DNA of 64,000 nt from Candidatus Nealsonbacteria bacterium (GCA_047456305.1 CP179888.1:573307-637306), one strand, 5' to 3'. Numbered from the stretch's first letter, positions 20,509-43,460 are shown. Numbers and translations are program-made. The notes: generated from the sequence alone by a model not told the origin.

Positions 20509-21629
20509 TGACAAATTTGGTCCTTTATCGCAAATACAGACCGCAAACTTTTGCTGAAATTATCGGTCAAGAACATATTGTTCAGACTTTAACCAATGCC
20601 ATCTCAACAGGGATGACTTCCCATGCCTATTTGTTTTCCGGGCCTAAAGGATCAGGAAAAACGACAATTGCCAGGCTTTTAGCAAAAGCAGTTAATTGCG
20701 AAAATCGAAAAGATGACCAATATGAGCCCTGTAATAAATGCTCGTCATGCCTTGAGATTATGGAAGGAAGGTCTATGGATTTAATTGAAATTGATGCTGC
20801 TTCCCATCGGGGAATTGATGAAATGAGAGAATTAAAAGATGGAATTCGATTCGTACCTACAAAGTCAAAATATAAGGTATTTATAATTGATGAAAGTCAT
20901 CAGCTTACGAAAGAAGCTGCCAATGCCCTCTTAAAAACTTTAGAAGAACCGCCTTCTCATGCTATTTTTGTTTTAGCCACCACTGAAATCCATAAAATGA
21001 TTCCAACCATTATCTCTCGCTGCCAAAGATTTGATTTCAGAAAACTAACTTTGCCAGAAATCATCAAAAGATTAGAAATTATTTCCCAGAAAGAAAAAGC
21101 TAAAATCGAAAAAGCGGCCTTAGAATTAATTGCCTTGAATTCTGGAGGTTCAATCAGAGATGGTGAGAGCTTATTAGACCAGATTCTAACTTTCGCCGGA
21201 ACTTCTGGGGAAGGGAAAGAAATAAAAGCTGAAGACATTAAAGATTTACTGGGATTGGTTGAAATAAATTTAGTGAGCAATTTTTGTGATTTTATTGCCG
21301 AAAAAAAAGTTTCAAAAGCTATTAATTTTTTAAACGATATAATCGATAAAGGATTAGACCTTCAAAACTTTACCAAAGCTCTGATTAATTATTTAAGACA
21401 AACTTTAATTTTAAAAATGACCGGCGGAGGAGAAGGAAATTCAATAATTACTGGATTAACCAAAGAGGAATTTCAAAAACTTGAAAAGCAAGCAACTTTC
21501 TTTAAAGAAGATGAGCTTCGAAATATTTTGGAGCTCTTCCTCGAAGCCGAAAATAAAATGAAATATTCCTCAATACCCCAATTACCCTTGGAATTAGCAA
21601 TAATTGAAGCAATCGGAGCAGGGGAGTAA
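20505..21629 (+). CDS. dnaX: DNA polymerase III gamma/tau subunit (short form)
   Basis: RPQTFAEIIGQEH, GPKGSGKTT, CNKCSSC, IIDESHQL, ISRCQRF. Confidence 0.85.
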   Translation: MMTNLVLYRKYRPQTFAEIIGQEHIVQTLTNAISTGMTSHAYLFSGPKGSGKTTIARLLAKAVNCENRKDDQYEPCNKCSSCLEIMEGRSMDLIEIDAASHRGIDEMRELKDGIRFVPTKSKYKVFIIDESHQLTKEAANALLKTLEEPPSHAIFVLATTEIHKMIPTIISRCQRFDFRKLTLPEIIKRLEIISQKEKAKIEKAALELIALNSGGSIRDGESLLDQILTFAGTSGEGKEIKAEDIKDLLGLVEINLVSNFCDFIAEKKVSKAINFLNDIIDKGLDLQNFTKALINYLRQTLILKMTGGGEGNSIITGLTKEEFQKLEKQATFFKEDELRNILELFLEAENKMKYSSIPQLPLELAIIEAIGAGE

Positions 21630-21633
21630 TTAT

Positions 21634-21704
21634 TCCGGGGTCGTCTAATGGTAGGACAGTTGGTTTTGGTCCAACCAATCTTGGTTCGAATCCAAGCCCC
21701 GGAG
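21634..21704 (+). tRNA. tRNA-Gln (anticodon TTG)
   Basis: Manual cloverleaf: acceptor TCCGGGG/CCCCGGA (U1-A72), anticodon stem GTTGG/CCAAC with loop TTTTGGT, T-arm CTTGG-TTCGAAT-CCAAG. Confidence 0.8.
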
Positions 21705-21877
21705 CCCACATTTTCATTGTTGTTTCTATTCTCTCTTTAATTGGCTCGGTCGCTCGCTACGGCTCGCTCCCTCGCCCTTATTTTATATTCAAAAATGGGT
21801 TTAAAAAAGTCAAAAAAAATTCTACTAAGCAAAACCTTTCGGTTTCGCTTTTTTATTTTCGCCAAAATTAGACAAAA

Positions 21878-21906
21878 TTGACAAAGAGAAAATAAAAATA
21901 TAAGAT
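21878..21906 (+). promoter_or_regulatory. Sigma70-type promoter of the helicase/nuclease operon
   Basis: TTGACA, 17 nt, TAAGAT. ATG of the HTH gene lies 10 nt downstream. Confidence 0.5.
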
Positions 21907-21916
21907 AAAGAATAAT

Positions 21917-22096
21917 ATGGACAAACTTTTAACTATTAAAGAAATAGCAAAAATTCTCCGTGTCAGTGAACGGTCAGTAAACCGCTATATTGAATCTGGG
22001 AAGCTCAAAGCTTCCAAAATCGGCCAATGGCGAATATCCCAAAAAGATTTAGAAGGGTTTTTGCAAAAAACTAAAAATATTAAAAAGAGAAAGTGA
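21917..22096 (+). CDS. Excisionase/MerR-type helix-turn-helix DNA-binding protein (59 aa, below ORF-track cutoff)
   Basis: Own translation: MDKLLTIKEIAKILRVSERSVNRYIESGKLKASKIGQWRISQKDLEGFL... matches the excisionase-family HTH pattern. Confidence 0.6.
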   Translation: MDKLLTIKEIAKILRVSERSVNRYIESGKLKASKIGQWRISQKDLEGFLQKTKNIKKRK

Positions 22097-22100
22097 GATC

Positions 22101-25100
22101 ATGGATCAAGTTTCATTATTAAATTTCATAAAGTATTGTTTTGGGTATATAAAATTGACTCGACAACGTTCCTTTATGCTCCAAAGTAAGCTCGCAATTA
22201 AATTGCCCGAGCATTTTTTTAATCTTGCAGAACTACTAGAAAGTGATATAGATGACAATACCGGCAAGCTGATAAATTTGGAAACTTTTTATTCTCTTGA
22301 CCCGAAAAGGATAACAAAAGAGACCCAAAAACAATATAACGAAGAGCAGTCTGTAGCAAAAAAGATAGAAGAAATTTATAACAAAGGTAGGAACGATCCT
22401 TATACTAAGCAGATTGTCTTTAGTTTCGGGTATTACGAAATTGAAATTCCTTTGGAAGAAGAAGAAATTGAATTAAGATCAGATTATTTGAGAGAGGAAG
22501 ATGAGAGTGAAAAGCCAGCGACGAAGATTGACCGTTATCCTTTATTTTCTCTTCCAATTAGTATCGAAAAAGTATTTGAAAAGGGAGCCGGTAAATATTT
22601 CATTAAGCCAATCGATACCGGGGTTCAAGTAAATATTGGTGTTCTCGCAGATATTTTAGGTGAAGATCTTTACTATAAACTGATAGAAGAATTTGGCAGA
22701 TACGAGGTGAAGGGCGATTTATCTTTGCCAATAACAAACTCGGTAATTTTTAACGAAATATGGGACAAGATCAGAGCTCAATTGAAATTAACGGATGTTA
22801 AATTTGGTGAAGACTCTTTTGTCTTTAATGAAATACGAGTAGGTATTAGTCCAAGGGCAAATTATTTTATAGCAGATGATTTACAAAAACTTTCTAAATA
22901 CGAAGAAGATGATTTTAAAAATACATCACTAATCAGTTGGATCGAGAATGAAGACCTTTCCTCAAAAGATGAGATACCAGAAGAAGGAGAACTATATTTT
23001 CCGTTCCTTTACGATGAATATCAATTAAGGGTTCTCTCAAATATCAATAATAATGCAAGCATTGTTCAGGGTCCTCCCGGAACAGGAAAATCCCAAACTA
23101 TCGCAAATCTTCTTTGTCATCTTGCCGCAAAAGGGAAAAAGATTCTCTTTGTGAGCCAGAAAGAGCAAGCTTTAAAAGTGGTAAAAGATATGTTGAAAAA
23201 ATTAGACACCCGGTATTTATTTGGATATATGCCAGATGTTGGCTCCATCCAATTAAATGAAGAAGATAGGTTAGATGGAATTGCTCCCCAGCTAGCTGCC
23301 TTAGAGTCTCACATAGATGAATTAGGTTATAAAATTTATCCGAGAAGAAAATATCCTCTTATTGTATATAAAGAGAAAAAAGGAGACACAATAACAACTC
23401 AAAGTATTAAAAATATTACCGAAAAGAAGACAGAATTAAAACAATTGTTTAGTCAATCAATCGAAGCACAAAGATTATTCTATAAGCTTTACCAAGAATT
23501 AGAGGATTTAAAGGAATATGATTTTGAGATTTCTAATTTGAGACGGTTTCAAAAAACATTTTCTGATGAGTTGCAGAAAAAAATTATAGAACTAAAGGAT
23601 GCTATAGAAAAGTTAGTTAAAGAAATTAAAAACTATGGAAGAAATAAAAAGAAGACCGGGTTTGATAAACTATTTTCTATTCTTGATCTAAAAAATAATC
23701 ACTACTCAGAGCTTATCCGAGAAATTGTTAACGATATCACTCAAGCTGGTTACGATGGGCATAATAAACTTTTGCGTAGTTTAAAAAATACTTTACAAAG
23801 GTGGCGCTTAAAGAATATTCGTTCTGCTTTACCCAGAGAATTACTTGATTATATCGATGAGCAAATTGGACAAGATATTTCAAGAACTCAAGCCATTAAG
23901 ACAATGGAAGAATTATTGAATTATTGTCGTTACCACGAACAACAAAAAGAGTTAAAAGAAATGGAAAAGGATTTAGAAGATTCGTTAAATAGTTGTGGGT
24001 CATCTAATAAAGAATTTCTTCGGATAGAAAAACTTATATCTAAGGCTAACTTCAATGAAGTTAAAGAAAAAATTCTCAGAACCTCGGAAATCCATAGACA
24101 ATTAGATGAGATTGAAACTAAAAACCCAAATGATATTAGTTTGTCTCTTGAGAAGACAGAAAAAACTCGACAGCAACGTATAGCAAAATATCTTCAAAAC
24201 ATTATTAATAAAAAAATCTTAGATAAATATAAAGAAGGAGCTTCGGTGAGAGCGATAATTAGAAAACTTGCCAAGGCCTTTGGTAAATCTAAAAAAGCAT
24301 ACAAGACTTTTGATCGGCTTAGAGATGACCCTAACAATTTTCTGGCTATTATGGATTTCATTCCAGTTTGGATAATGGAACTTGACGATGCGAGTCGGGT
24401 TATTCCTCTAGGGCCCGGAATTTTCGATTATGTTATTTTTGACGAATCTTCTCAATGCAATATCGCCTATGGAATTCCAGCAATGTACCGGGCTAAAAAA
24501 GCTCTTTTCGTAGGAGATAGTGAACAGATGCGAGATAATACGATTATCTTTAAATCAAATCGCTCTTTCGATGAATTGGCTAAAAAATATCAAATTTCTG
24601 AAGATCTTCAAATCAAGGCTACTGGAGAGGCAGTGCAGTCAATTTTAGACATAGCTCGATTAACAGGTTTTGAAGAAGTGCCGTTAAGGAATCATTATCG
24701 TTCACCGAGAGAATTAATTGGTTTTAGTAATAAATACTTCTATAAACCAAAAGGCAAAGAATTGATAATCCAAAATACTAACTATTTATCGTATAAAAAC
24801 ACTGATCAGATAATGGTCATTCATCCGATTGAAGTTGATTGGAATAAAGAAATTTCAGAAAGGATAAATGTCTCCGAGGCGGAAAAAATATTAAAGTTTT
24901 TCCGTGAACTAAAATCTGATAAACGCTACCAAGACAAATCTATTGGAATTCTTTCGTTTTTTAACGCTCAAGCAGCTTATCTCCGTGAGCTATTTGAAAA
25001 AGAAGGATATAAAGAAGAAGTTGATAATTACAAAATCGGGATTATTGAAGGAATTCAGGGCGATGAAAAAGATATTATTATCTATTCCTTTGTTATTCGG

Positions 25101-25676
25101 ACTCCAGATCAAAAAAATAAATATATTCCTCTTACAGGTGAAGGTGGAGACATTAGAGCCGGCATAAACAAAGGCAGAGTAAATGTTGCTTTCTCCCGAG
25201 CGCGATTACAAACTCACTGTTTTGTAAGTATGCCTATTGAAGAAATCCCGGACGGAATTTGGATTAAGAAATATCTTGAGTATGTAAAGGATAATTGCAA
25301 AATTGATTTTTTCTCAGTAGAGTTAAAACCTTTTGATTCTGAATTTGAAAAGAAGTTTTATAATTTTGTCTATTCAAACTTACCTAAAAAAGGGTATCGC
25401 ATCCAGAACCAAGTTAGGAGTTGCGGATTTAAAATTGACTTTGTTATCACTAATACTAAGACTGGAGAGAAGGTTGCCATTGAGTGTGATGGCCCAACTC
25501 ATTTTCAAAATGAAGCTGATGAAGAAATTGGAATCTATGCTGAAGATGATGAAGAAAGACGACAAATATTAGAAGCTGCCGGCTGGGAGTTTTGTAGAAT
25601 AAAATACTCTGATTGGATTGATGAAAAATTCGATCGTAAACTAATATTAAATGACATTATAAAGATACTCTCATAG
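22101..25676 (+). CDS. Upf1-like SF1B helicase fused to C-terminal DUF559/Vsr-fold endonuclease (DUF4011-type architecture)
   Basis: GPPGTGKSQT, FDESSQC, VGDSEQM, HYRSPRELI, IQGDEKDIIIYSFV, NVAFSRAR. C-terminus FKIDFVI...VAIECDGPTHF...AGWEFCRIKYSDW. Confidence 0.8.
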   Translation: MDQVSLLNFIKYCFGYIKLTRQRSFMLQSKLAIKLPEHFFNLAELLESDIDDNTGKLINLETFYSLDPKRITKETQKQYNEEQSVAKKIEEIYNKGRNDPYTKQIVFSFGYYEIEIPLEEEEIELRSDYLREEDESEKPATKIDRYPLFSLPISIEKVFEKGAGKYFIKPIDTGVQVNIGVLADILGEDLYYKLIEEFGRYEVKGDLSLPITNSVIFNEIWDKIRAQLKLTDVKFGEDSFVFNEIRVGISPRANYFIADDLQKLSKYEEDDFKNTSLISWIENEDLSSKDEIPEEGELYFPFLYDEYQLRVLSNINNNASIVQGPPGTGKSQTIANLLCHLAAKGKKILFVSQKEQALKVVKDMLKKLDTRYLFGYMPDVGSIQLNEEDRLDGIAPQLAALESHIDELGYKIYPRRKYPLIVYKEKKGDTITTQSIKNITEKKTELKQLFSQSIEAQRLFYKLYQELEDLKEYDFEISNLRRFQKTFSDELQKKIIELKDAIEKLVKEIKNYGRNKKKTGFDKLFSILDLKNNHYSELIREIVNDITQAGYDGHNKLLRSLKNTLQRWRLKNIRSALPRELLDYIDEQIGQDISRTQAIKTMEELLNYCRYHEQQKELKEMEKDLEDSLNSCGSSNKEFLRIEKLISKANFNEVKEKILRTSEIHRQLDEIETKNPNDISLSLEKTEKTRQQRIAKYLQNIINKKILDKYKEGASVRAIIRKLAKAFGKSKKAYKTFDRLRDDPNNFLAIMDFIPVWIMELDDASRVIPLGPGIFDYVIFDESSQCNIAYGIPAMYRAKKALFVGDSEQMRDNTIIFKSNRSFDELAKKYQISEDLQIKATGEAVQSILDIARLTGFEEVPLRNHYRSPRELIGFSNKYFYKPKGKELIIQNTNYLSYKNTDQIMVIHPIEVDWNKEISERINVSEAEKILKFFRELKSDKRYQDKSIGILSFFNAQAAYLRELFEKEGYKEEVDNYKIGIIEGIQGDEKDIIIYSFVIRTPDQKNKYIPLTGEGGDIRAGINKGRVNVAFSRARLQTHCFVSMPIEEIPDGIWIKKYLEYVKDNCKIDFFSVELKPFDSEFEKKFYNFVYSNLPKKGYRIQNQVRSCGFKIDFVITNTKTGEKVAIECDGPTHFQNEADEEIGIYAEDDEERRQILEAAGWEFCRIKYSDWIDEKFDRKLILNDIIKILS

Positions 25677-25700
25677 AAAATTAAATGAAAAATTAATTAT

Positions 25701-27188
25701 ATGAAAAAAATTACAGCTACTAATTTTTACGATTATACTAAATGCAAATATTGTGTATATTTAGAAAAAAACGGAGACCCAAAATTAAAAGATAAGATCT
25801 CCAATTTTGTGAAATTATTATGGTATAGAGGTATCCAGCATGAAGAGGCGGTTATTAAAGATTTTATTAAAAGCAAAAATAAATCTTTTGCAGAGGTTGC
25901 AAGAGATAAGCCAGCTGGTAAAGCAACTTTTATAGAAACAATTAACCTTATGAAAAGAGGAGTTGACTATATATATCAAGGAGTATTGATGGCTGATAAC
26001 TTTGTGGGCAGACCTGATTTACTTGAAAAAATAAAAGGTAATTCATCTTTTGGAGAGTACTGTTATATACCTGTTGATATTAAATCAGGAAGGGGTTATG
26101 AAGGAGAGGATTTTGATAATGGGAAAGTTAAAGAATCATATTGGCTCCAAATTAATTTCTACAGTCTTTTATTGGGCAAGATTCAAGGGTACCTTCCTAA
26201 ATTCGGTAAAATTATCAATATAGATTATCAAGAATTAGAATATAAGATCGATTTAGACAACAAAAATTTTATTAAGATTAAAGAAGATATATCATTGATG
26301 GCAAAAGGCCGTGAGTTATATCAGCCGACAATTAGTAGCAAGTGCGATTTATGTAGATGGAAAACTTATTGTAAAAAATGGGCAAACAAAAGAAAGGATT
26401 TATCTTTATTGTTTTATGTTGGTGAGATTAAATATGGATTACAGGATTGTGGAATTAATAAAATTGAGGAAATACTTAAATTGCCGTTAGAAGAATGGCT
26501 TAAAAAACTACCGGAAATAAAAAAAGAAGGACACTTTAAGGGTATTGCAGAAAAAACTTTTACCAACCTTTATAGAAGAGCGGAGGTTTACAAACAAGGC
26601 AAAGAAGTCTTTTATTCTCGGATAGAGTTTCCTGATTCAGATATAGAAATACATTTTGACATAGAAGATGACCCGACACAGGATATTACTTATTTATTTG
26701 GTTTCTGGATAAGAGAATTTTCAAAAAACAAAAGCTATTATAAATACTTCATGGCACAAGATATTAATGAAGAAGAAAAAACCGTAAAGGAGTTGTGGAG
26801 ATTTTTGCAAGAATGCTACGGAATACCAATATACCATTATTCTATGCATGAAATATCTACATTAAGAAGATTACAGCAAAAATATAAATTGACTCCAAGC
26901 CCCTTGGAACAACTTGAAGAGAAATCTATCGACTTATACAAAATAATACAAAAGTATTCTGATTGGCCTTTGACTAGTTATGGTTTGAAACCAATTTGCA
27001 AATTTATAGGTTTTCAGTGGTCTTCTGATGATGCTGGTGGAGCGAATTCAATTGAATGGTTCTCTAAATTTCTTTCTGGCGATAAGGAAATGAGAGAGAA
27101 GATATTAGAATATAATAAAGAAGACTGCGAAGCGACAGCCCACTTAAAAGATTATATACAAAAAAATGATAAATTTATCTCCAAGTAA
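25701..27188 (+). CDS. TM0106-type RecB/Cas4-like Fe-S nuclease fused to RNase-H-like (DEDD) exonuclease
   Basis: CKYC, GRPDLL, PVDIKSG, QINFYSLLL, CDLCRWKTYC; then IHFDIEDDP and YNKEDCEAT. Confidence 0.75.
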   Translation: MKKITATNFYDYTKCKYCVYLEKNGDPKLKDKISNFVKLLWYRGIQHEEAVIKDFIKSKNKSFAEVARDKPAGKATFIETINLMKRGVDYIYQGVLMADNFVGRPDLLEKIKGNSSFGEYCYIPVDIKSGRGYEGEDFDNGKVKESYWLQINFYSLLLGKIQGYLPKFGKIINIDYQELEYKIDLDNKNFIKIKEDISLMAKGRELYQPTISSKCDLCRWKTYCKKWANKRKDLSLLFYVGEIKYGLQDCGINKIEEILKLPLEEWLKKLPEIKKEGHFKGIAEKTFTNLYRRAEVYKQGKEVFYSRIEFPDSDIEIHFDIEDDPTQDITYLFGFWIREFSKNKSYYKYFMAQDINEEEKTVKELWRFLQECYGIPIYHYSMHEISTLRRLQQKYKLTPSPLEQLEEKSIDLYKIIQKYSDWPLTSYGLKPICKFIGFQWSSDDAGGANSIEWFSKFLSGDKEMREKILEYNKEDCEATAHLKDYIQKNDKFISK

Positions 27189-27903
27189 AATCAATATCTA
27201 CAAGCAGTGTCCGTTTAAATATAAATGCGAGATAGATACCGAATTAAGAAAAAAATATAAGAGAGAAACTCCTCCGCTTGTTTTCGGTAATTTGGTACAT
27301 ACTTGTTTAAATGACCTGTATAAGAGAACTCAAAAAGAAGATAGAAGTTTACAGAGACTCAGAGATTTGTTTGAACAAAAATTTAAAGCCAATCTGGCAA
27401 AACATATCAATATTTTTGGTTCGCAAGAGAATATAATAAGTTATGTAGAAAAGGCAAAGAAGATGTTTAAAAATTATACAGAAAGCGAATTTTTTGAACC
27501 GGAGCCAATGCTTACAGAAGAATTCCCTAAGTCTTTAATAAATGAAAATATTGAACTTAGAGGAAAGTTTGATAGGGTCGATCTTAATAAGAATAAATTG
27601 ACCTTAATAGATTATAAGACAGGAAAATTTAAAGAGGATGAAGCAGATAAATTTCAAGTAAGCCTTTACGAGCTTCTTTTATCAAGATACTTACCCGAAT
27701 ATACCGTAGAGGAAAAGATACTATATTATCTTGATGATAATAAAACAATCAGATTTCCATCTGAGAAAGATAGTCTTTCTGAAATAGAGAAAAAATTAAT
27801 GTCTATTGCTAATAAAATAGATAATGACAAAGAACTACTTCCGACACAAAATAATCTATGCAGATATTGCGATTATAAAGTTATATGTCCTGTTTTTAAA
27901 TAA
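27166..27903 (+). CDS. Cas4/AddB-type PD-(D/E)xK nuclease with Fe-S cysteines
   Basis: QCPFKYKC, GKFDRVD, LIDYKTGK, QVSLYELLL, CRYCDYKVIC. Overlaps the upstream gene by 23 nt. Confidence 0.75.
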   Translation: MINLSPSKINIYKQCPFKYKCEIDTELRKKYKRETPPLVFGNLVHTCLNDLYKRTQKEDRSLQRLRDLFEQKFKANLAKHINIFGSQENIISYVEKAKKMFKNYTESEFFEPEPMLTEEFPKSLINENIELRGKFDRVDLNKNKLTLIDYKTGKFKEDEADKFQVSLYELLLSRYLPEYTVEEKILYYLDDNKTIRFPSEKDSLSEIEKKLMSIANKIDNDKELLPTQNNLCRYCDYKVICPVFK

Positions 27904-27918
27904 AAGAATTACAATTTG

Positions 27919-29322
27919 ATGACCCAGCGAGAAGCATTAGATATATTGAAGCTTGGCCACAATGTTTTTTTGACTGGCCCTGCCGGAAGCGGTAAGACTT
28001 TTTTGTTAAACAAGTATATAGAGTATTTAAAAGACAAAAAAGTTAAAGTTGGAATTACTGCTTCTACAGGAATTGCGGCTACCCATATTAACGGAAGAAC
28101 AATTCATTCTTGGTCCGGTTTTGGTATTAAAGACAAGTTGATAGAAAAAGAAATGAGAAAATTGTTAAATAGCAGGCATCTTAATTTAAGAATTTCAGCA
28201 ACAAAAGTTCTTATTATAGACGAGATTTCAATGCTTCATGCTCATCAATTAGATTTGGTAAATAGAATCTGCAAAAAAATTAGAAATAACTATTTGCCAT
28301 TTGGGGGATTACAGGTTGTATTGTGTGGAGATTTTTTCCAACTGTCTCCTGTAGAAAGAAGCGGTAAAAAACCTCACTTTGTTAATGAATCCAAGGCTTG
28401 GCTTGAAATGGGTATTAAGGTTTGTTATTTGGATAAATGTCAGCATAGGCACAAAGATGAGAATTTCATTAAGCTTTTAAACGAAATAAGAAAAAATAAT
28501 GTCAGTGTTTCAAGTAAAAAATTATTACTTGAAAGGTTATATAAATCAGTAAATACCCCTATTAAACCTGTGAAGCTTCATACTCATAATGCTAATGTAG
28601 ATGCTATTAATAGTTTTGAGTTAAAAAAGATAAAAACTAAAGAAAGGGTTTATGAAATGACTTCTGATGGTCCTAAGAATTTAGTCGATTCTTTGAAAAA
28701 ATGGTGTTTAGCTCCAGAAGGACTAACTGTGAAAAAAGGAGCTGCTGTAATATTTGTTAAGAATAATTTTGATAGAGGATATATAAATGGAACCCTTGGA
28801 AAGATTGTAGGATTTAATAAAGAAGATGGTTATCCGGTAGTAAAAGTTGTTTCTGGTAAAAGAATTCCAGCATATCCTGAATCATGGAAAATAGAGGAAG
28901 ATGATGAAGTTAAAGCCCAGATTAGTCAAATTCCACTCCGTTTGGCTTGGGCTATTACAGTTCATAAAAGTCAAGGTATGACTTTAGATATAGCGGAAAT
29001 GGATTTAAGTAAGTCATTTGATTATGGTATGGGTTATGTAGCTCTTTCTAGGGTAAGGTCTTTTAATGGAATAAAGTTAATAGGGGTAAATCGTTTAGCC
29101 CTTCAGGTTAGCAAGGAAGTCATAGAATTAGACAAATACCTGCAAAAAATGTCAGAGAAAGTAGAAAAGAGTTTAGGAGATATAAGTGTCAAAGAAATTA
29201 GGAAAAGGCAAAAGAGCTTTGTAGAATTGAATACAGATGAAGATGAGAGCGAAGAAGACGAAGCAATACCAACAGTAGATATTGCTGAAGATGAAATACC
29301 AATAGTAGATATTCCTTTTTAA
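27919..29322 (+). CDS. Pif1/RecD-type SF1B helicase with acidic C-terminal tail
   Basis: GPAGSGKTF, IIDEISML, LCGDFFQLSPV, ITVHKSQGMT, YVALSRVRS. Confidence 0.8.
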   Translation: MTQREALDILKLGHNVFLTGPAGSGKTFLLNKYIEYLKDKKVKVGITASTGIAATHINGRTIHSWSGFGIKDKLIEKEMRKLLNSRHLNLRISATKVLIIDEISMLHAHQLDLVNRICKKIRNNYLPFGGLQVVLCGDFFQLSPVERSGKKPHFVNESKAWLEMGIKVCYLDKCQHRHKDENFIKLLNEIRKNNVSVSSKKLLLERLYKSVNTPIKPVKLHTHNANVDAINSFELKKIKTKERVYEMTSDGPKNLVDSLKKWCLAPEGLTVKKGAAVIFVKNNFDRGYINGTLGKIVGFNKEDGYPVVKVVSGKRIPAYPESWKIEEDDEVKAQISQIPLRLAWAITVHKSQGMTLDIAEMDLSKSFDYGMGYVALSRVRSFNGIKLIGVNRLALQVSKEVIELDKYLQKMSEKVEKSLGDISVKEIRKRQKSFVELNTDEDESEEDEAIPTVDIAEDEIPIVDIPF

Positions 29323-29457
29323 TTTTTATTTGACTGGTGATTATCGGCAGTGCTTTTTTGCGATGGTAGGGTAGAGGAGAAGAAAAAGAAATAAATTTAT
29401 GAAGGCAAAAATATAATAATCATTTTGGCGTTGATAGTTATTATTTTATAATTACTT

Positions 29458-30225
29458 ATGAAAATATATTCTGATTTTGAACTTAGAACAGAAATAAAAA
29501 AACTCAAAAAAGAAAAAAAATACACAGAGGCTAAGAAGTTACTATTATCAAGAATAGATGAGAAATTTTTTAAAAAATCCGGTGCTTATAAGGATTATTG
29601 TTCGCAAACATTTACTACTTACTTTATCGAAGAACTTATAAAATTGTTAATTCAACTAGGCGAAAAAGAAAAGGCTCTCCATGTCTTTAAGAAAGGGCTA
29701 AAATTACCACATTTAAAAAGAGAAAATGAAATTGCCTTTTCTCTATCAATACAAAGTATCTATCCTCAAATAGCAAAACAGTATATTCCAAGATATAAAA
29801 TAAAAACAATCGAAAGAAGGGTAGTTTTCAAGAAAGGCAAACAAAAATTTTTAGAAAAAAATAGAAAGGAATTATTTGTTGAAGAGATAGCTTTGGAATA
29901 TTACCGTTATAATGGTAATTGGCGCGGTGTATGGCTCACTCCCACAACAGAAGTTTTATATTTTAAACGCTTAAGACAAACAATTGGTTTAAGTAATTAC
30001 AAAAAATTAACAAGCAATGCAATGGATAGCATGGGGCATATTTGCAATTTGTGCTATGGAGCACCAGATTTAATTTTGTATAAAGGGTTTATCAAGAAGA
30101 TTGGGAAGTCTGTTGAAGTAAAAGGCTTAAAAGACAAACTCTCTACAGCACAGTTAGTATGGATTGAACAATTTAATAAACTACATTTAGATTTTGAGGT
30201 GTTACAAGTTAAAGAAAAAAAATAA
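29458..30225 (+). CDS. FAN1-like nuclease (helical/TPR-like N-domain + VRR-NUC)
   Basis: VEEIALEYYRYNGNWRGVW and GAPDLILYK...SVEVKGLKDKLSTAQLVWIEQF (PD...ExK VRR-NUC pattern). Confidence 0.6.
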   Translation: MKIYSDFELRTEIKKLKKEKKYTEAKKLLLSRIDEKFFKKSGAYKDYCSQTFTTYFIEELIKLLIQLGEKEKALHVFKKGLKLPHLKRENEIAFSLSIQSIYPQIAKQYIPRYKIKTIERRVVFKKGKQKFLEKNRKELFVEEIALEYYRYNGNWRGVWLTPTTEVLYFKRLRQTIGLSNYKKLTSNAMDSMGHICNLCYGAPDLILYKGFIKKIGKSVEVKGLKDKLSTAQLVWIEQFNKLHLDFEVLQVKEKK

Positions 30226-30436
30226 TATTTTTGTGAGAGGTTAACTCTAACTCGAAAAAATTAAAGAAATTAGAATTTGGAGAGTGAATAAAATTTTTAA
30301 ATAAAAATGTGAATTTTTTAGTAGAAAATCTTTTAAAAGTTAGGGCAACTGACCATCGAAAAATTCAAGAGGAAATTAGAAGAATTATTAAAAGAAGCCA
30401 AACAAAAAGTCGAGGAATTAATTGAGAAATAAAATT

Positions 30437-30730
30437 ATGGATTATATAAAAACGTATATATTTAAAGATAAAGATGGTAAATTTTGGCCAAAAGTAAAAT
30501 TTAATACTGAGAAAGGAGATTGGCAACCTAAGGCGGAACAAATTAAAGATATTGTTAGGGTATATTCTTATTGTCTAGAAAAATCTCGTTATTCTGAAGC
30601 TTTTGGTGGTGCAGAAAAATTTGCAGAACAAATCAACCTCGCCATTTTATACAATAAAGATGGTTCCCCTAGGTCGTATGAATACGGAGATGAAATATAT
30701 GATATAGAAGAGGAAGTAAAAGAACATTGA
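30437..30730 (+). CDS. Hypothetical protein
   Basis: ORF track; ATG 30437 preferred. No recognisable motifs. Confidence 0.4.
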   Translation: MDYIKTYIFKDKDGKFWPKVKFNTEKGDWQPKAEQIKDIVRVYSYCLEKSRYSEAFGGAEKFAEQINLAILYNKDGSPRSYEYGDEIYDIEEEVKEH

Positions 30731-30751
30731 GAGAAAAATAAAAGATCAATC

Positions 30752-30770
30752 AAAATTTAGCCCGAAATTA
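30752..30770 (+). repeat. Junction repeat family 1 (AAAATTTAGGCYGAARTTGAG), short copy
   Basis: AAAATTTAGCCCGAAATTA immediately before ATG 30773. Confidence 0.6.
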
Positions 30771-30772
30771 AT

Positions 30773-31477
30773 ATGAAACAATGGGATAAAATATTTAAAA
30801 AATATGGTAAAGTTTTTACAAAAATCGAAAGGGATTTGCCAAAAATTGTAAAAATATTTAAAAAACATAATGTTAAAAAAGTCCTTGATTTAGGTTCAGG
30901 CACGGGACGACATGTAATTTATTTAGCTAAAAATGGATTTGAAGTATATGGAATTGATATTTCCGAGGAAGGAATAAAAATTACCAAAAATTGGTTAAGA
31001 GAGAACGAATTAAAGGCGGGCCTTAAAGTTGGCTCCATCTACAAAAAGTTGCAATACAAAGATAACTTTTTTGATGCGGTTATATCTACAAGCACGATTC
31101 ATCATGCCAGAATTAAAACCATCAGAAAAGCAATCAAAGAAATAGAAAGGATATTAAAGCCAGGCGGATTAATTTTTATAACTGTCCGTAAAAGAAAGCT
31201 TAAGAAGTTCTGGCCAAAATCTACAATAATTGAGAAATACGGAAAACAAAAATCAAGCTATAAAGTAATTGGACCAAGGACTTATATACCGATAGAAGGA
31301 GGCGAAAAAGGATTAATACATTATCTTTTTAATAAAGAATTGATAAAAAAAGAATTTAAGAACTTTAAAATTAATAATATTTGGATTGATTCTAAAAGAA
31401 GGCATTATTGTTTCTTAGGGGAATTAAAAAACTTACCAAAATTTAGGCCGAAGTTGAGGGAAATCAATAAAATATGA
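30773..31477 (+). CDS. Class I SAM-dependent methyltransferase
   Basis: [11 protein letters not shown] motif I, GIDIS acidic loop, [10 protein letters not shown]. Confidence 0.75.
31438..31465 (+). repeat. Junction repeat family 1, copy inside 3' end of methyltransferase ORF
   Basis: AAAATTTAGGCCGAAGTTGAGGGAAATC, 9 nt before ATG 31474. Confidence 0.7.
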
Positions 31478-32016
31478 AATATCCTGATTTGAAGATAAAA
31501 TTTCAAAATAAAACATTAACTTTTCAATTTTTGGGGCAATTTGAGATCGAGCGAGACGAAAAAGGAACCCCAATTACTTATGAGAGGAAAAATCAAGAAG
31601 AAACGAGTTATTTATTAAGTGTTCGGACAGAACTAACAAAAAGTGGTAAACCTGAGGTAATTACAATTCTTCCAAATCATTTACGTACAAAATTAAAACG
31701 AAAATATTACGATACAAAAAATCTTGGTGATATCTGGCGATTACCCGGAATTTATGCATTTATATTGACAAAAGATAATAACGTAAAATACAAATATATA
31801 GGTCGAGCAAGTATCAGAATTGCAAACCGTTTACGACAATACCTTGCACCGAGCTCTAAAAGAATGACGACTTTTTATGTAAATCGATTGTTGTTTAAAA
31901 CACTTAAAGAGGGAGACACAGTGCTAATCTATTTTTATCCCGAGCCTGACACAGAAAAGGAATTGCAAATTCTTCTTCGTCCAGATTGGAACCGTGAGAT
32001 TCCTAGAAATAATTAA
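31474..32016 (+). CDS. GIY-YIG-like nuclease-domain protein (tentative)
   Basis: [22 protein letters not shown]...ANRLRQY resembles GIY-(x13)-YIG plus a conserved Arg. ATGA overlap with the upstream gene. Confidence 0.4.
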
Positions 32017-32042
32017 AATTTAGGCCAAAGTTGAGAGAAATT
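32015..32042 (+). repeat. Junction repeat family 1, intergenic copy
   Basis: AAAATTTAGGCCAAAGTTGAGAGAAATT, 10 nt before ATG 32053. Confidence 0.7.
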
Positions 32043-32052
32043 CAAAAAGAAT

Positions 32053-32628
32053 ATGAATGATATTGAAATCGAGATTCAAGTTAATATTGAAGATAATAAG
32101 CCGCTAATAGATTTTTTAGAAAAGAGCGGTCAGTTTATGTCAGAGAACCATCAGATAGACGAGTATTTTTCTCCGGTTCACCGAAATTTTATTGGAGTTC
32201 GTCCAGTTAAAGAATGGTTAAGGTTACGAAACTCAGACGGGAAATTCTCTATAAATTATAAAAACTGGTATTTTGATGAAAAAGGAAAAAGCCACCATTG
32301 TGATGAATACGAAACTAAAATAGAAGATTTAACCCAAATTAAAAAGATATTAGATGTCCTTAATTTTAAATCTATTATTAAGGTTGATAAACTAAGAAAA
32401 ACCTGGATATACAAAGATTATGAAATTGATGTAGATTCAGTAAAAGGGCTGAGAGATTTTGTGGAGATTGAATACATCGGAAAAGAAGAAAAAATAGACC
32501 CAAAAAAGATTACAGAAGAAATGATGAGCTTTCTTAAAAGTCTTGGGTGCGGAAAAATAAAAAGGAATTATGTAGGTTATCCGTTTCAATTACTATTTCC
32601 AGATGAAGTAAAATATGAAGAGCAATAA
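32053..32628 (+). CDS. CYTH-domain protein (CyaB-like class IV adenylyl cyclase / triphosphatase fold)
   Basis: N-terminal IEIEIQ (ExExK-like), WLRLR, DEYETKI, LRKTW, DFVEIEY in CyaB-like order. Confidence 0.7.
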   Translation: MNDIEIEIQVNIEDNKPLIDFLEKSGQFMSENHQIDEYFSPVHRNFIGVRPVKEWLRLRNSDGKFSINYKNWYFDEKGKSHHCDEYETKIEDLTQIKKILDVLNFKSIIKVDKLRKTWIYKDYEIDVDSVKGLRDFVEIEYIGKEEKIDPKKITEEMMSFLKSLGCGKIKRNYVGYPFQLLFPDEVKYEEQ

Positions 32629-32629
32629 A

Positions 32630-32658
32630 TCGCCAAGATGGCGGTTTTTTGATAGAAT
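32630..32658 (+). promoter_or_regulatory. Junction element family 2: hairpin + T-run + TGnTAGAAT (-10) cassette
   Basis: TCGCCAAGATGGCGGTTTTTTGATAGAAT; ATG 32666 lies 7 nt after the -10. Confidence 0.6.
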
Positions 32659-32665
32659 AAATAAA

Positions 32666-32956
32666 ATGAAATATAGTAAAAAACCAATTGATAATAATTT
32701 AGAGAAATATTACAAAAAATGGATTTCAGCAATTGCTAATGACGAAACCGGCCGAACAATCAAACGGCATATCATTAGACATGCCAAAGAAATTTATTCA
32801 AAAGAATCAAAAGTATGGTCGGCGAGCATGAGAAATTTGATAGAAGTTTTTGATGAGGTCTATAAATCGACTCCGTCAATAAAATTAAAAATAAAAAGAC
32901 TCCAACATAAGTACAAACTGAATCCAAAAAGATATACCCCTCCACCGTCCAAGTAA
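32666..32956 (+). CDS. Hypothetical basic protein
   Basis: ORF-track frame trimmed to the ATG that follows the junction element (MKYSKKPID...). Confidence 0.4.
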   Translation: MKYSKKPIDNNLEKYYKKWISAIANDETGRTIKRHIIRHAKEIYSKESKVWSASMRNLIEVFDEVYKSTPSIKLKIKRLQHKYKLNPKRYTPPPSK

Positions 32957-32973
32957 GGTTTAAATTTTCGTAA

Positions 32974-33002
32974 TCGCCAAGATAGCGGTTTTTTGGTAGA
33001 AT
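32974..33002 (+). promoter_or_regulatory. Junction element family 2
   Basis: TCGCCAAGATAGCGGTTTTTTGGTAGAAT; ATG 33010 lies 7 nt after the -10. Confidence 0.6.
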
Positions 33003-33009
33003 AGAAAAT

Positions 33010-33552
33010 ATGAAGAAAGAGGAATATTTAGATATAGTTGACGAAAATGACAAGGTAATTGATAGAGATACTAGAAAAAATATATATAGAAAAAGAATAG
33101 ATTCCCAAGTTAGAGTTGTAAATGTTTTTATTTTAAACTCGGAAGGAAAATTACTCCTACCTAAAAGGTCGATGAATAGACAGATTTTTCCTGGATGCTA
33201 TGATTTTTCTTGTGGAGAACATGTTTTATCTGGAGAAAAGTATTATGAAACAGCCTTGAGAGGCGTGAGAGAAGAATTGGGCCTTGAAGGAGTAGAATTA
33301 ATTGAGTTAGGGAAACTTACTCCTCGGGATGGTGTTAGTTGTTTTATGAAAATCTATAAAGTGATCTATGATGCAGAAATAAATAATTATGACACGGATG
33401 GAATTGATAGATTGTTTTGGTATAGCTTGGATAAAGTGAGAAAAATGATCATGGAGGACAAGAAAAAATTTAAGGATGATTTTTCAATTGTACTAGAAAA
33501 ATTTGCTAATCAACTTGAAAACATAAGTAGCAAAAAACAGAATTTAGGCTGA
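33010..33552 (+). CDS. Nudix hydrolase (IDI/YfcD-like)
   Basis: Nudix box GEHVLSGEKYYETALRGVREELGL, with RG in place of the canonical RE. Confidence 0.8.
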   Translation: MKKEEYLDIVDENDKVIDRDTRKNIYRKRIDSQVRVVNVFILNSEGKLLLPKRSMNRQIFPGCYDFSCGEHVLSGEKYYETALRGVREELGLEGVELIELGKLTPRDGVSCFMKIYKVIYDAEINNYDTDGIDRLFWYSLDKVRKMIMEDKKKFKDDFSIVLEKFANQLENISSKKQNLG

Positions 33553-33559
33553 AATTGAG
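33541..33559 (+). repeat. Junction repeat family 1, copy at 3' end of Nudix ORF
   Basis: AATTTAGGCTGAAATTGAG. Confidence 0.6.
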
Positions 33560-33582
33560 CCCTTCGCCAAGCTCAGGGTAAA
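33560..33582. repeat. 23-nt GC-rich motif CCCTTCGCCAAGCTCAGGGTAAA
   Basis: One mismatch to 54426-54448 inside murC. Confidence 0.7.
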
Positions 33583-33609
33583 GGAAAATTTAATAACTAT
33601 ATAAAGATT

Positions 33610-34173
33610 ATGGCATTAAAAGTAGGTATAATTGGACCCGCTAATATTCCGAAAATAAGTAAAATTGTTGGGAAACCAGCAGGTTTTTTTCTTGAGAGGG
33701 GTGATAAGATTGGAGAAATTTTAGTCGAAACTGGTTGTGAATTGTGGGTAAATAGTGATAAAGGTATGCTGGCTAAAATTGCCAGAGCTTATAAGAAAAA
33801 TAATGGTAAAAAATTAGTTATTCTATACCCTGGTAAAGGCGAGCCATGGCCTAAAGATCATGCCGAATTATACAGAAAATACGGAGATGAAATTAGAAAA
33901 GAACCTAACTGGTTTTGGTCAAATTATAATGTAGTTTCATTACCAGATGTTTGTATTTGTGTAGGATTAAGCGCTGGTGGTTTGAGTGAGTTGGCATATA
34001 TTAAATGGAATTATTCATTGAAATGTGGGAATTTAAAAAAATTAATTGCAATAAAAGAATTGTTAAGAGGTGGTAAGTTGCCACCAGAAATTGAATTTGA
34101 TATCCAAAAAATATTAATATACATCAATAAAACTGAGGAATTAAAGGAACTTTTAGAAAAACTTTCTAAATAA
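33610..34173 (+). CDS. LOG/SLOG-like Rossmann-fold protein (TIGR00725-like, tentative)
   Basis: VGIIGPAN N-terminal strand, GCELWVNSDKGMLAKIARAY, CVGLSAGGLSELAY resembling the LOG GGxGTxxE region. Confidence 0.45.
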   Translation: MALKVGIIGPANIPKISKIVGKPAGFFLERGDKIGEILVETGCELWVNSDKGMLAKIARAYKKNNGKKLVILYPGKGEPWPKDHAELYRKYGDEIRKEPNWFWSNYNVVSLPDVCICVGLSAGGLSELAYIKWNYSLKCGNLKKLIAIKELLRGGKLPPEIEFDIQKILIYINKTEELKELLEKLSK

Positions 34174-35163: not shown

Positions 35164-35297
35164 TAAAACTCACAAAATCGATAGCTCAAAATACTTTTTA
35201 GACAACTGCCAGTAGGTTCTAATAGTGTTCAATCCTTGCAGTTAATGAATTTCAAAAAAAGTTGCCGAGAAGAAATTTTTTTGGTAAGATAGAATAT

Positions 35298-36011
35298 ATG
35301 AAATTAGTCAATAAAACAGCTTTAATAACTGGTGGCTCAAAAGGAATTGGAAGGGCTATTGCTCAAATGTTTATTAAAGAAGGAGCAAAAGTTATAGTTT
35401 TTGACATTGAAAAACCAGATTACGAAGTGGAATTTTATCAAGTTGATACAGGCAAAGAAGAACAAATAGGAAAGGCGTTTGGTCAGATTAAACAATTAGA
35501 TATCCTTGTAAATAATGCTGGAGTATATTTTCAGGCATCTGTAGAAGAAACCTCAAAAGAGCAATTGGATAAAATTGTGGATATAAATTTAAAAGGAACA
35601 TATCTAATGTCAAAATACGCAATTCCCATAATCAGGAAAACCAAGGGCAATATTATCAATATTTCATCAGGATTAGGGGTTGTTCCTGAGCCAGAATCTC
35701 CTGCCTATTGTTCAACAAAAGCAGCGATAATAATGCTTACAAAATGTATGGCTCAAGAATACGCGTCAGAGGGATTAAGGATAAATGCGATATTACCAGG
35801 ACCAATAGATACTCCATTATTAAGAAATGCTTTTTCTTCAGAAAAGGAAATTGAAGAATATGCAAAATTAAATCCTATGAAGAGGATTGGGAGACCGGAA
35901 GATGTTGCAAGTATAGCAGTTTTTTTAGCTTCAGATGAAGCAAGCTACGTCACTGGTGGACTATATTCAGTCGATGGTGGAGAGTCTACTTCCAGTGTTT
36001 ATTCAAAATAA
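35298..36011 (+). CDS. Short-chain dehydrogenase/reductase (FabG-like)
   Basis: TGGSKGIGRAIA, NNAG, YCSTKAA. ATG 35298 follows a TGGTAAGAT box. Confidence 0.85.
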   Translation: MKLVNKTALITGGSKGIGRAIAQMFIKEGAKVIVFDIEKPDYEVEFYQVDTGKEEQIGKAFGQIKQLDILVNNAGVYFQASVEETSKEQLDKIVDINLKGTYLMSKYAIPIIRKTKGNIINISSGLGVVPEPESPAYCSTKAAIIMLTKCMAQEYASEGLRINAILPGPIDTPLLRNAFSSEKEIEEYAKLNPMKRIGRPEDVASIAVFLASDEASYVTGGLYSVDGGESTSSVYSK

Positions 36012-36027
36012 GTCGCCGTAAGGAAAA

Positions 36028-36056
36028 TCGCCAATCAGGCGTTTTTTTGGTAGAAT
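36028..36056 (+). promoter_or_regulatory. Junction element family 2
   Basis: TCGCCAATCAGGCGTTTTTTTGGTAGAAT; ATG 36063 lies 6 nt after the -10. Confidence 0.6.
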
Positions 36057-36062
36057 AGGAAT

Positions 36063-36704
36063 ATGAATAATAATTTTAACTCAGAAAATTTAGGTAAAAT
36101 TTTTGATTTTTTACATAAAGTAGGAAAGTTAAAATTAACTTTCAGATTTAGTGAGGTAAAAAACATGCCTAAAGATTTAAAAGACTCAAGTGCTGCGCAT
36201 TCGTGGAGATTGGTCTTAATGGTATTTATAATAGCTGATGAATTAAATTTGGATATAAATATAGAGCACGCCTTAGAGATTGCTATTATTCACGATATTG
36301 TAGAAGCAATTACAGGAGATATAGACCAAGTTTTAATTTTTGATGGTAAGGTATCAAAAGAAGAAAAACAAAGAAATGAAAAAGAAGCGATGAAAAAACT
36401 TAAAGAAAGCCTACCTTTAAAACTCGGAAATAAAGTATCTAATTTATGGAATGAATATGAGGGAAGCTCTACAAAAGAAGCGAAATTTGTAAAAGCGCTT
36501 GATAAATTAGAAACATTAACTCATTTAATTGAAACTGGTTATAAAACCTATGATAGACCAGAATTTATAGTCAAATATGCCGATAAAACAGTTAAAAATT
36601 TCCCCGAATTAACGGGTGTGTTAAAAATAATCAAAAAGAAGCTAAAAGCAGAATTTGATAAGGGCAATATTCCATGGAAAGAAGAATATGATTGTTTAGA
36701 TTAA
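36063..36704 (+). CDS. HD-domain phosphohydrolase (YfbR-like 5'-nucleotidase type)
   Basis: AAHSWRL...AIIHDIVEAITGDI (H...HD...D). Confidence 0.75.
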   Translation: MNNNFNSENLGKIFDFLHKVGKLKLTFRFSEVKNMPKDLKDSSAAHSWRLVLMVFIIADELNLDINIEHALEIAIIHDIVEAITGDIDQVLIFDGKVSKEEKQRNEKEAMKKLKESLPLKLGNKVSNLWNEYEGSSTKEAKFVKALDKLETLTHLIETGYKTYDRPEFIVKYADKTVKNFPELTGVLKIIKKKLKAEFDKGNIPWKEEYDCLD

Positions 36705-36718
36705 TAAACTGCCAAAAA

Positions 36719-36747
36719 TCGCCAAAAAGGCGGTTTTTTGATAGAAT
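36719..36747 (+). promoter_or_regulatory. Junction element family 2
   Basis: TCGCCAAAAAGGCGGTTTTTTGATAGAAT; ATG 36754 lies 6 nt after the -10. Confidence 0.6.
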
Positions 36748-36753
36748 AGAATA

Positions 36754-42161: not shown

Positions 42162-42191
42162 GACACCCCTTAAGGTCCCCAAATTTGTTCC

Positions 42192-42237
42192 TAAAATCCA
42201 GGTTCGAGACCAGGGATGCCAGCACCAGTCAGCGCAG
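42192..42237 (+). repeat. Direct repeat with tRNA T-arm-like core (left copy)
   Basis: TAAAATCCAGGTTCGAGACCAGGGATGCCAGCACC...AGCGCAG, about 85-90% identical to 42796-42841. Confidence 0.75.
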
Positions 42238-42711: not shown

Positions 42712-42795
42712 TTAAAATTTTATCTCATTTTAGCTTAAAAATGCCCCGACCGAGGCGGGTCGATGGAATACTGCCAAAAGCCCCGAAATCCCTCT

Positions 42796-43434: not shown

Positions 43435-43460
43435 GAATTGCTGAATTGCTGTTACCGGAA

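Follow-up and report, generated by a model that had tools for sequence, protein, structure and literature searches.

The single-polypeptide helicase-nucleases Hhe and Nhi have been linked to phage resistance: Hhe is reportedly the single-gene anti-phage system of Gao et al. 2020, and the source study for Nhi is said to be Bari et al. 2022. Cloned by itself, Hhe confers protection from phage, those resisted being lambda, T3, T7 and PhiV-1; this defence is lost when the Vsr domain carries the mutation E1731A (bioRxiv 10.1101/2022.06.16.496414). Nhi, a protein of ~610 amino acids (aa), consists of an N-terminal nuclease and a DUF2075-type superfamily 1 (SF1) helicase, and is implicated in anti-phage defence (PMC11232893). 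CnuH of the type III-B CoCoNuT systems is Upf1-like, carries a large helical, partly coiled-coil insertion after the Walker A motif and is directly fused to a Vsr-like nuclease (PMC10542128 / eLife RP94800). ProA, named as an anti-phage protein, and the candidate PDC-S37 are represented by an NCBIfam and a PADLOC profile, respectively, and no paper describing either of them was found in the literature searched. Here we analysed a stretch of 64,000 nucleotides (hereafter the window) from a Candidatus Nealsonbacteria bacterium (GCA_047456305.1, CP179888.1:573307-637306), which contains a helicase-nuclease gene at 22101..25676 on the + strand. On sequence comparison, its product falls in a compact (~1190 aa) and as yet uncharacterised clade, conserved from end to end, within the superfamily of Hhe, ProA, PDC-S37 and CnuH-III-B. 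No mechanistic study of a helicase-nuclease of this type was found in the literature searched.

Patescibacteria (bacteria of the candidate phyla radiation, CPR) have tiny genomes and usually lack CRISPR. Surveys suggest that they hold defence systems missed by current tools (PMC12259885). The gene lies in the surroundings of an ordinary Patescibacteria chromosome of ~34% GC, with DnaB, CysS, DnaX, tRNA-Gln and a DUF5667 protein among the genes. As determined from the open reading frame (ORF) listing and its translation, 22101..25676 (+) is a single unbroken ORF with an ATG start, encoding 1191 aa, and the end coordinate includes the stop codon. All nine motif strings quoted in the initial annotation, which was made from the DNA sequence alone, were found in this translation. 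More than 1100 database proteins matched the helicase-nuclease, well beyond what chance would give, the best 120 of them being full-length with 49-100% identity; clade members are named 'AAA domain-containing', 'DUF559 domain-containing' or, generically, 'superfamily I helicase/very-short-patch-repair endonuclease'. The identical NCBI protein, 'AAA domain-containing protein [Candidatus Nealsonbacteria bacterium]' (P0001, 1166 aa), begins at Met26. In an alignment of 39 members with 53-91% identity to the query, aa 1-25 (nt 22101-22175) were kept across the family, and L6, Y12, C13, Y16 and T20 were invariant. Because of this conservation the ATG at 22101 is a better start than Met26, and the public NCBI model is probably truncated at its N-terminus by 25 residues.

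The protein had been annotated as an Upf1-like SF1B helicase, and this assignment held. Pfam AAA_11 (aa 306-515, split) and AAA_12 (aa 860-1037, 2.6e-21) scored above threshold, and the closest matches among PDB sequences by phmmer (Sen1, SETX, IGHMBP2 and UPF1) and among folds by Foldseek were to the Upf1 family. An AlphaFold2 model of the full protein, built with 39 homologues, had a mean predicted local distance difference test score (pLDDT) of 71. Foldseek comparison of this model retrieved SETX, Aquarius, UPF1, IGHMBP2, ZNFX1, Sen1 and Dna2 with E values of 4e-9 to 2e-4 and a probability of 1.00; the TM-scores of these matches were low (0.2-0.4), owing to the insert described below and the mediocre model. 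The first part of RecA1 (aa 306-380, 23016..23240, +) was delimited by matches to AAA_11, AAA_19 and AAA_30 and by invariant columns, and contained the Walker A sequence GPPGTGKS (motif I; aa 324-331, nt 23070-23093, +) and motif Ia, LFVSQK (aa 349-354, +). The second part of RecA1 together with RecA2 (aa 754-1045, 24360..25235, +) was delimited by AAA_12, by the Sen1/SETX PDB alignments and by Foldseek. It contained DESSQ (motif II; aa 781-785, nt 24441-24455), GDSEQM (motif III; aa 805-810) and the helicase motif strings HYRSP (aa 865-869), QGDEKD (aa 986-991) and NVAFSRAR (aa 1028-1035), all on the + strand. Every helicase motif, including motif Ia, was invariant in 39/39 aligned members. 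By family membership, the motor would be expected to translocate 5′ to 3′ on single-stranded nucleic acid.

Motifs I and II are spaced 450 residues apart. The long insertion that had been noticed between them was confirmed and placed more exactly, after motif Ia, at ~aa 381-753 (~375 aa; 23241..24359, +), using DSSP assignments on the AlphaFold2 model and the coverage of the PDC-S37 and ProA profiles. In this model aa 436-753 formed helices only, with lengths of 25-38 residues, and with a pLDDT of 80-92 were the best-predicted region; the motif II strand (aa 775-780) followed the insert. The insert was the least conserved region of the 39-member alignment, yet F483, D552, R559, R569, P578, G633 and Y697 were invariant. 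Profile coverage of it began at aa 440 for PDC-S37 and at aa 432 for ProA, and relatives carry inserts of ~450 to ~1150 aa at the same place. By these alignments, the insert is a shared feature and not one of this protein alone.

The C-terminal region (aa 1079-1177, 25335..25631, +) was assigned as a Vsr-fold PD-(D/E)XK nuclease (MTES_1575) from Pfam, invariant residues and the AlphaFold2 model. PF18741 (MTES_1575) matched aa 1086-1176 at E 5.1e-18, its 65.4 bits exceeding the gathering score (38.2), and was detected in 39/39 family members. With this score and with the catalytic residues retained on alignment, the proposed C-terminal endonuclease fold was borne out. Its earlier description as DUF559/MTES_1575 type stood for MTES_1575, above the cut-off, but not for DUF559 itself, which fell just short (18.7 vs 20.6). 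A RAP domain was weakly matched in 39/39 members (best E 1.4e-7). The block contained the strings FKIDFVI (aa 1110-1116), AIECDGPTHF (aa 1126-1135) and GWEFCRI (aa 1161-1167), all on the + strand. The putative catalytic residues D1113, E1128, D1130 and H1134 were invariant in the 39 sequences, as was R1166, and the D, E and D were also invariant in 28 distant relatives. In the AlphaFold2 model the secondary-structure order was alpha-beta-beta-beta-alpha-beta, as in PD-(D/E)XK nucleases; the second strand carried D1113, and the third ended with E1128-x-D1130. Searching PDB sequences with the C-terminal domain gave no significant match, the best being a RAP-domain protein at E 0.13.

The N-terminal alpha/beta domain (aa 1-300, 22101..23000, +) was characterised with a separate AlphaFold2 model (pLDDT 75, predicted TM-score 0.70) and by hhalign to larger relatives. 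It comprised three strands of 8-20 residues and an acidic disordered loop (aa 119-138). In the 39-member alignment it was as conserved as the motor, with motifs including NDxxTKQ and DRYPLFSLP. Neither the query nor any of the 39 members had a Pfam match in this domain, Foldseek of its model against the PDB gave nothing significant (best E 0.33), and a sequence search with the domain alone gave just fragments from its own clade. One BFVD match was obtained with Foldseek, a 440-aa 'AAA domain protein' (E 2e-4, TM 0.26), which probably represents part of some related protein. A profile of aa 1-298 was then compared by hhalign with the regions preceding Walker A in 28 larger relatives (1090-1997 aa), and these pre-helicase regions of the larger superfamily matched over aa 82-287 with a probability of 97.7% and E 1.5e-12. 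Motifs common to both were NDxxTKQ/NPYxRE, (Y/A)PLF, RxNYF(L/I)xxDLxxL and xFPF. Thus the initial view that the N-domain and the insert hold no assignable motif was correct in that neither Pfam nor the PDB offers a match for the N-domain; this domain is, however, homologous to its counterpart in larger superfamily members, and the insert has equivalents in relatives. Since the N-domain is homologous and PDC-S37 and ProA align over the insert, all four modules follow a common superfamily plan. As judged from sequence and model together, these modules are a superfamily-specific N-domain, an SF1B motor with a ~375-aa helical RecA1 insert, RecA2, and a Vsr-fold nuclease.

An exhaustive search of 1.84 billion cluster representatives recovered ~25-30 full-length, end-to-end representatives of the clade (37-53% identity, 1150-1450 aa). 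Below this group the scores fell sharply to ~300 bits, to proteins of 1000-2000 aa that aligned over aa 600-1175 only; 2776 clusters matched the helicase-nuclease at E <= 1e-30. Among PADLOC profiles the protein matched PDC-S37 (5e-71), Hhe (1e-32) and MkoC (3e-28), MkoC/MkoA on the helicase core only. The larger relatives matched PDC-S37 moderately (best 3e-94) and also matched Hhe. By these comparisons the clade is distinct and is not an orthologue of any named system; the curated Hhe and ProA models do not call it.

To define the distribution of the clade, one genome per species (185,579 species) was scanned with patterns built on the invariant motifs, and 70 distinct loci (numbered with the prefix L) were obtained. 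Most were from Patescibacteria of many classes. Others, on long contigs and with 50-55% identity, were labelled as Planctomycetales, Thermodesulfovibrionales, Nitrospiraceae, Ignavibacteriae, TM6, Omnitrophota and Verrucomicrobia. One metagenome-assembled genome (MAG; SRP292972_co3_31) had two copies, L036 (CAZXKC010000004.1) and L053 (CAZXKC010000003.1), each ~55% identical to the query. The locus L013 ('Gammaproteobacteria') duplicated L003 (Gottesmanbacteria), with the same gene order and coordinates, and a 76%-identical homologue (P0010) was on a 4.5-kb contig labelled Promethearchaeota; the taxon labels of some MAG records look unreliable. The clade was not found in IMG/VR, where one distant relative had 26% identity. 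A phage-encoded gene was rejected on the absence of the clade from IMG/VR and on a sole PHROG match to a helicase family of unknown function.

In 53 of 57 loci the gene had a lower GC content than its flanks (median difference -5.3 points, maximum -16.5). Neighbourhoods varied by locus, with restriction-modification, RhuM, Fic, Phd and YhcG genes among them. Clustering of flanking ORFs revealed one strongly recurrent neighbour, a large serine recombinase with Resolvase, Recombinase and Zn-ribbon domains, which was present within 6 kb in 22 of ~70 distinct loci (24 before removal of duplicates), a raw count taken without a genome-wide background. The recombinase 3′ end overlapped an opposite-strand tRNA gene in 12 loci (L003, L012, L019, L035, L038, L039, L044, L048, L051, L055, L062 and L070) and lay within 160 nt of one in two more (L057 and L059), i.e. 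in 14 of 23 recombinase copies, a geometry typical of islands inserted at tRNA genes. The identity of the tRNA varied from locus to locus; L044 had two tRNA-Thr genes (6068-6141 and 6150-6224), both of them beneath the recombinase C-terminus. The flanks in 20 related loci showed no att-like repeats, in line with the expectation for serine recombinases. Six loci had a tyrosine integrase within ~5 kb, which in three was directly upstream, and in seven loci, including the window and L004, a tRNA was directly upstream of the module with no intervening recombinase. The gene is thus accessory and horizontally mobile, typically in small tRNA-adjacent islands with a large serine recombinase.

In the window, a tRNA-Gln gene (anticodon UUG; 21633..21708, +) was identified by ARAGORN and by Rfam (tRNA, 59.9 bits), and is the probable former integration site of an island, the limits of which were not delimited by the recombinase or repeat searches. 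Between this tRNA and the helicase-nuclease was a gene for a 59-aa HTH_17 (excisionase/MerR-like) helix-turn-helix (HTH) protein (21917..22096, +; Pfam HTH_17 4.3e-17, PHROG excisionase/transcriptional regulator 5e-12), the stop codon of which is 4 nt ahead of the helicase-nuclease ATG. A promoter-like site, TTGACA-17 nt-TAAGAT (21878..21906, +), lay 10 nt before the HTH gene and matched the consensus at 10 of 12 positions. It was the top-listed + strand match in 21600-30800, where the total of such sites was not above that of shuffled sequences, and it is a consensus match only. The same order of tRNA-Gln, small HTH gene and helicase-nuclease occurred in L004, with a 76%-identical homologue. 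In nine other loci an HTH gene of 60-91 aa was 2-14 nt upstream of the homologue (76 nt in L017), belonging to an XRE-like class in L004, L021, L044, L050 and L054, and more distantly in L014 and L016, or to an HTH_17/MerR-like class in L012 and L017. Because non-homologous HTH classes replace one another, a regulatory role is suggested, and the 59-aa protein is, from its sequence, a putative regulator of the module.

Starting 24 nt past the helicase-nuclease stop codon was a gene for a 495-aa PD-(D/E)XK (Cas4-like) and RNase_H_2/DUF2779 protein (25701..27188, +; Pfam RNase_H_2 2.5e-30, PDDEXK_1, DUF2779). A homologue was immediately downstream in L006/L067 (62% identity), L019, L009 and L073, and related DUF2779 or PDDEXK_1 proteins were downstream in L015, L020, L075, L003 and L055, so that a Cas4-like/RNase-H-like nuclease directly follows the gene in ~9-10 loci (~15%). 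In L019 and L006 it was on the same recombinase island. The 495-aa protein is regarded as a facultative partner nuclease. DUF2130 proteins followed the gene in L012, L047 and L057, and the same ORF cluster was 0.7-0.8 kb downstream in L051 and L065.

Further downstream in the window, a gene for a 245-aa PDDEXK_1/Cas4-like exonuclease (27166..27903, +; Pfam PDDEXK_1 2e-36, PHROG exonuclease 7e-30) overlapped the 495-aa gene by 23 nt. It was followed after 12 nt by a gene for a 468-aa Pif1/Dda-like SF1B helicase (27916..29322, +; Pfam PIF1 4.5e-40, PHROG Dda-like helicase 3e-68), and a VRR-NUC gene was 135 nt further on. The 245-aa nuclease and the Pif1 helicase are putatively in the same operon, and it is uncertain whether they belong to the system. 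The PDDEXK_1, Pif1 and VRR-NUC neighbours of the window were not conserved at other loci, except that the 245-aa nuclease/Pif1 pair recurred in L071, at a distance of 6.6 kb from the homologue.

We favour, at a probability of roughly 0.55, the reading that this single-polypeptide, presumably ATP-driven helicase-nuclease is HTH-regulated and is an island cargo acting against invading nucleic acid. In such a system the HTH protein would hold expression in check, and the motor would engage foreign nucleic acid, invading or replicating, at a 5′ single-stranded tail or fork and from there move 5′ to 3′. The N-domain and the helical insert would serve as a substrate-sensing, autoinhibitory or oligomerisation module, and translocation would license the C-terminal nuclease to nick or cut. 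A downstream exonuclease, if present, would prepare 5′ overhangs or finish degradation, by analogy with type III Druantia, in which DruH generates 5′ overhangs for the helicase-nuclease DruE (bioRxiv 10.64898/2026.05.13.724313). The net effect would be protection of the host and the island from phages or other mobile DNA.

Several points weigh against the defence reading. We infer defence from homology to Hhe, ProA and PDC-S37 and from gene context, and the matches to the ProA and Hhe models are far below the cut-offs of these models, with 245.4 bits against an equivalog cut-off of 1500 for ProA (profile positions 1000-1692 of 1903 only) and 147.6 bits against 2000 for Hhe in NCBIfam, while PDC-S37 is itself only a PADLOC candidate system. 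The clade is unusually conserved for a defence gene, with 50-55% identity end to end across phyla. No serine recombinase was found in the 64 kb of the window; the 3′ end of its tRNA-Gln was not repeated elsewhere there, no informative direct repeat was found in 21-46 kb, and the GC dip of its gene is small (33.1% vs 34.0%). The recombinase enrichment is a raw count, as stated above. The neighbouring Cas4-like nucleases, Pif1 and VRR-NUC, and RecA and RecX in L001, would fit DNA repair as well. Finally, the substrate may be either DNA or RNA: all 39 members also show the weak RAP match, and the CoCoNuT authors argue for RNA targets (PMC10542128).

The last two points bear on an RNA-targeting version, in which an Upf1-like RNA helicase with a RAP/Vsr-fold ribonuclease would survey or degrade foreign or aberrant transcripts. 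Most of the closest solved relatives are RNA helicases (UPF1, Sen1/SETX, IGHMBP2, Aquarius and ZNFX1), the Mokosh helicase profiles match as well, and CnuH systems, the Vsr-fused type III-B among them, are predicted in the CoCoNuT study to target RNA (PMC10542128); the RAP-domain match among PDB sequences was non-significant. However, Vsr and most PD-(D/E)XK enzymes are DNA cutters, Upf1-family motors also act on single-stranded DNA, with Dna2 among the matches here, and the recurrent neighbours are nucleases of DNA type (Cas4-like and RNase-H/DnaQ-like). The computed features do not separate the two substrates, and we consider this RNA-targeting reading unlikely. The presence of Dna2 among the structural matches would also suit a housekeeping DNA-repair or recombination enzyme, performing Dna2/AddAB-like end resection in genome-reduced Patescibacteria together with Cas4-like nucleases, Pif1 and a VRR-NUC resolvase. 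Such a role agrees with the tight spacing of the PDDEXK, PDDEXK_1 and Pif1 genes, with VRR-NUC 135 nt beyond, with a Pif1/RecD-like helicase, RecA and RecX within 6 kb in L001, and with strong purifying selection along the whole length. Against it, the gene is rare and patchy (~70 loci in 185,579 species genomes) and so not core, its synteny is not conserved, it is associated with recombinases and tRNA sites, and its GC is below that of its flanks; identity is 50-55% between phyla, one MAG has two copies, and the Pif1 and VRR-NUC neighbours are not conserved at other loci. A repair role therefore appears quite unlikely, and a core Patescibacteria housekeeping gene was rejected as unlikely, given how rare the gene is, how its synteny varies and how its GC deviates.

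The gene might instead serve the mobile element, either as a maintenance or addiction module, with a nuclease toxin and an HTH antitoxin-like repressor, or as a factor for replication or transfer of the serine-recombinase island or for its exclusion of rival elements. The recombinase-tRNA geometry of 14/23 recombinase copies and the very compact units of recombinase, HTH gene and helicase-nuclease (e.g. L044, L035 and L060) point in this direction. The HTH_17 protein is excisionase-like, and its homologues adjoin the recombinase in L038 and L048; high sequence conservation is also expected of element core genes. On the other hand, ~2/3 of the loci, including the window, have no recombinase within 6 kb, the upstream HTH genes are of different families, which suggests regulators over a dedicated partner, and Hhe, with the same core, protects against phage when cloned alone; service to the element is to us improbable. 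A related reading, which we rate as very unlikely, is that the HTH and helicase-nuclease pair, with an optional Cas4/RNase-H-like nuclease, is the signature cargo or a working part of undescribed small serine-recombinase tRNA islands moving between Patescibacteria and unrelated phyla. The helicase-nuclease would then act in the life cycle of the element, for instance in processing replication or transfer intermediates or in the destruction of competing elements, and not in classical host defence; if so, the high conservation across phyla would reflect that role.

Some features of the window outside this module were also recorded. Past the putative operon, 29458-34173 contained a series of genes for nucleotide and nucleic-acid enzymes (VRR-NUC, class I methyltransferase, a weakly matched GIY-YIG protein, CYTH and NUDIX); it had the lowest GC in the window (29-31%) and may be part of the same acquired region. 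A 49-nt intergenic repeat family had six copies (32625-32673, 32969-33017, 35257-35305, 36023-36071, 36714-36762 and 43456-43504), each consisting of a hairpin AATCGCCAAGATGGCGG, a T-run and then GATAGAAT ~10 nt ahead of the next start codon; this repeat looks like a terminator-plus-promoter cassette reused between + strand genes. A 61-nt direct repeat with 82% identity, at 42177-42237 and 42781-42841, held the tRNA T-arm-like sequence GGTTCGAGACC, and no RNA gene was called in it by ARAGORN or Rfam. At 45362-45405, intergenic and near a strand-switch region, the 22-nt unit CTTGCCTATCTTATCTTTTAAA was present twice in tandem without mismatch.

Being well conserved and small (1191 aa vs 1500-1900 aa), the protein is a convenient subject for biochemical and structural studies of how Upf1-like motors gate a Vsr nuclease, and the link to serine-recombinase/tRNA islands gives a handle on horizontal gene flow into and out of CPR bacteria. 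Should the defence reading be wrong, the protein would be one more uncharacterised helicase-nuclease.

Among proteins with a similar architecture, the initial annotation had named Nhi as being of the same general type. Nhi is indeed a single-polypeptide nuclease-helicase, but its domain order and helicase family differ, and the PADLOC Nhi model gave no match; kinship was rejected on the missing profile match and the reversed architecture. Mokosh (MkoA/MkoC) was likewise rejected: its profiles matched the helicase core alone (aa 316-1037), and Pfam found no PLD domain. The suggested comparison with DUF4011 proteins was negative, with no PF13195 match at E <= 0.1 in the protein, nor at E <= 0.01 in the 39 members, and membership was rejected at the Pfam level; DUF4011 was present in one of the 28 larger relatives, at 6.7e-4. 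UPF1, Sen1/SETX, IGHMBP2, Aquarius, ZNFX1 and Dna2 share the motor fold, its motifs and the insertion of accessory domains into RecA1. These eukaryotic/archaeal Upf1-like SF1B helicases have, however, only 10-18% identity to the protein and carry 1B/1C (barrel, stalk) inserts and not a 375-aa helical one. None has a C-terminal Vsr nuclease, and the nuclease of Dna2 is N-terminal and of another PD-(D/E)XK type.

CnuH of type III-B CoCoNuT, compared by description, resembles the protein in its helical insert after Walker A and its fused Vsr nuclease, but its N-terminal Sul7s-like winged HTH was not seen here. CoCoNuT systems are defined by operonic CnuB/McrB, CnuC/McrC and CnuA, and no such genes were present in the window or recurrent in ~70 loci; membership was rejected on the absence of McrBC-like partners among the window neighbours and in the flanking-ORF clustering of ~70 loci. 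Hhe (NCBIfam NF042953, PADLOC PDLC02194) likewise unites, within a single polypeptide, an Upf1-like SF1 helicase and, C-terminal to it, a Vsr-fold MTES_1575 nuclease, and its NCBIfam profile matched aa 749-1176 at E 3e-43. It differs in being ~1800-1900 aa long with DUF4011, compared with 1191 aa and no detected DUF4011 here, and the Hhe profiles left the N-domain and most of the insert of this protein unmatched. PDC-S37 (PADLOC PDLC05009) matched with 238 bits (E 5e-71) from aa 440 through RecA2 to the nuclease (aa 1176-1177), over profile positions 623-1328 of 1550 only. ProA (NCBIfam NF058533; 1e-72), which together with PDC-S37 gave the best profile matches, aligned from aa 432 in the insert through RecA2 to the nuclease.

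The architecture is already described, in the Pfam MTES_1575 family, by Anantharaman et al. 2013, in Hhe and in CnuH III-B, and a specialist would find the clade unsurprising. This analysis adds that the N-domain is homologous across the superfamily, corrects the start codon, and links the gene with a small HTH gene upstream, with a facultative partner nuclease and with serine-recombinase/tRNA islands. Compared with these known systems, the clade itself is a new, uncharacterised subfamily.

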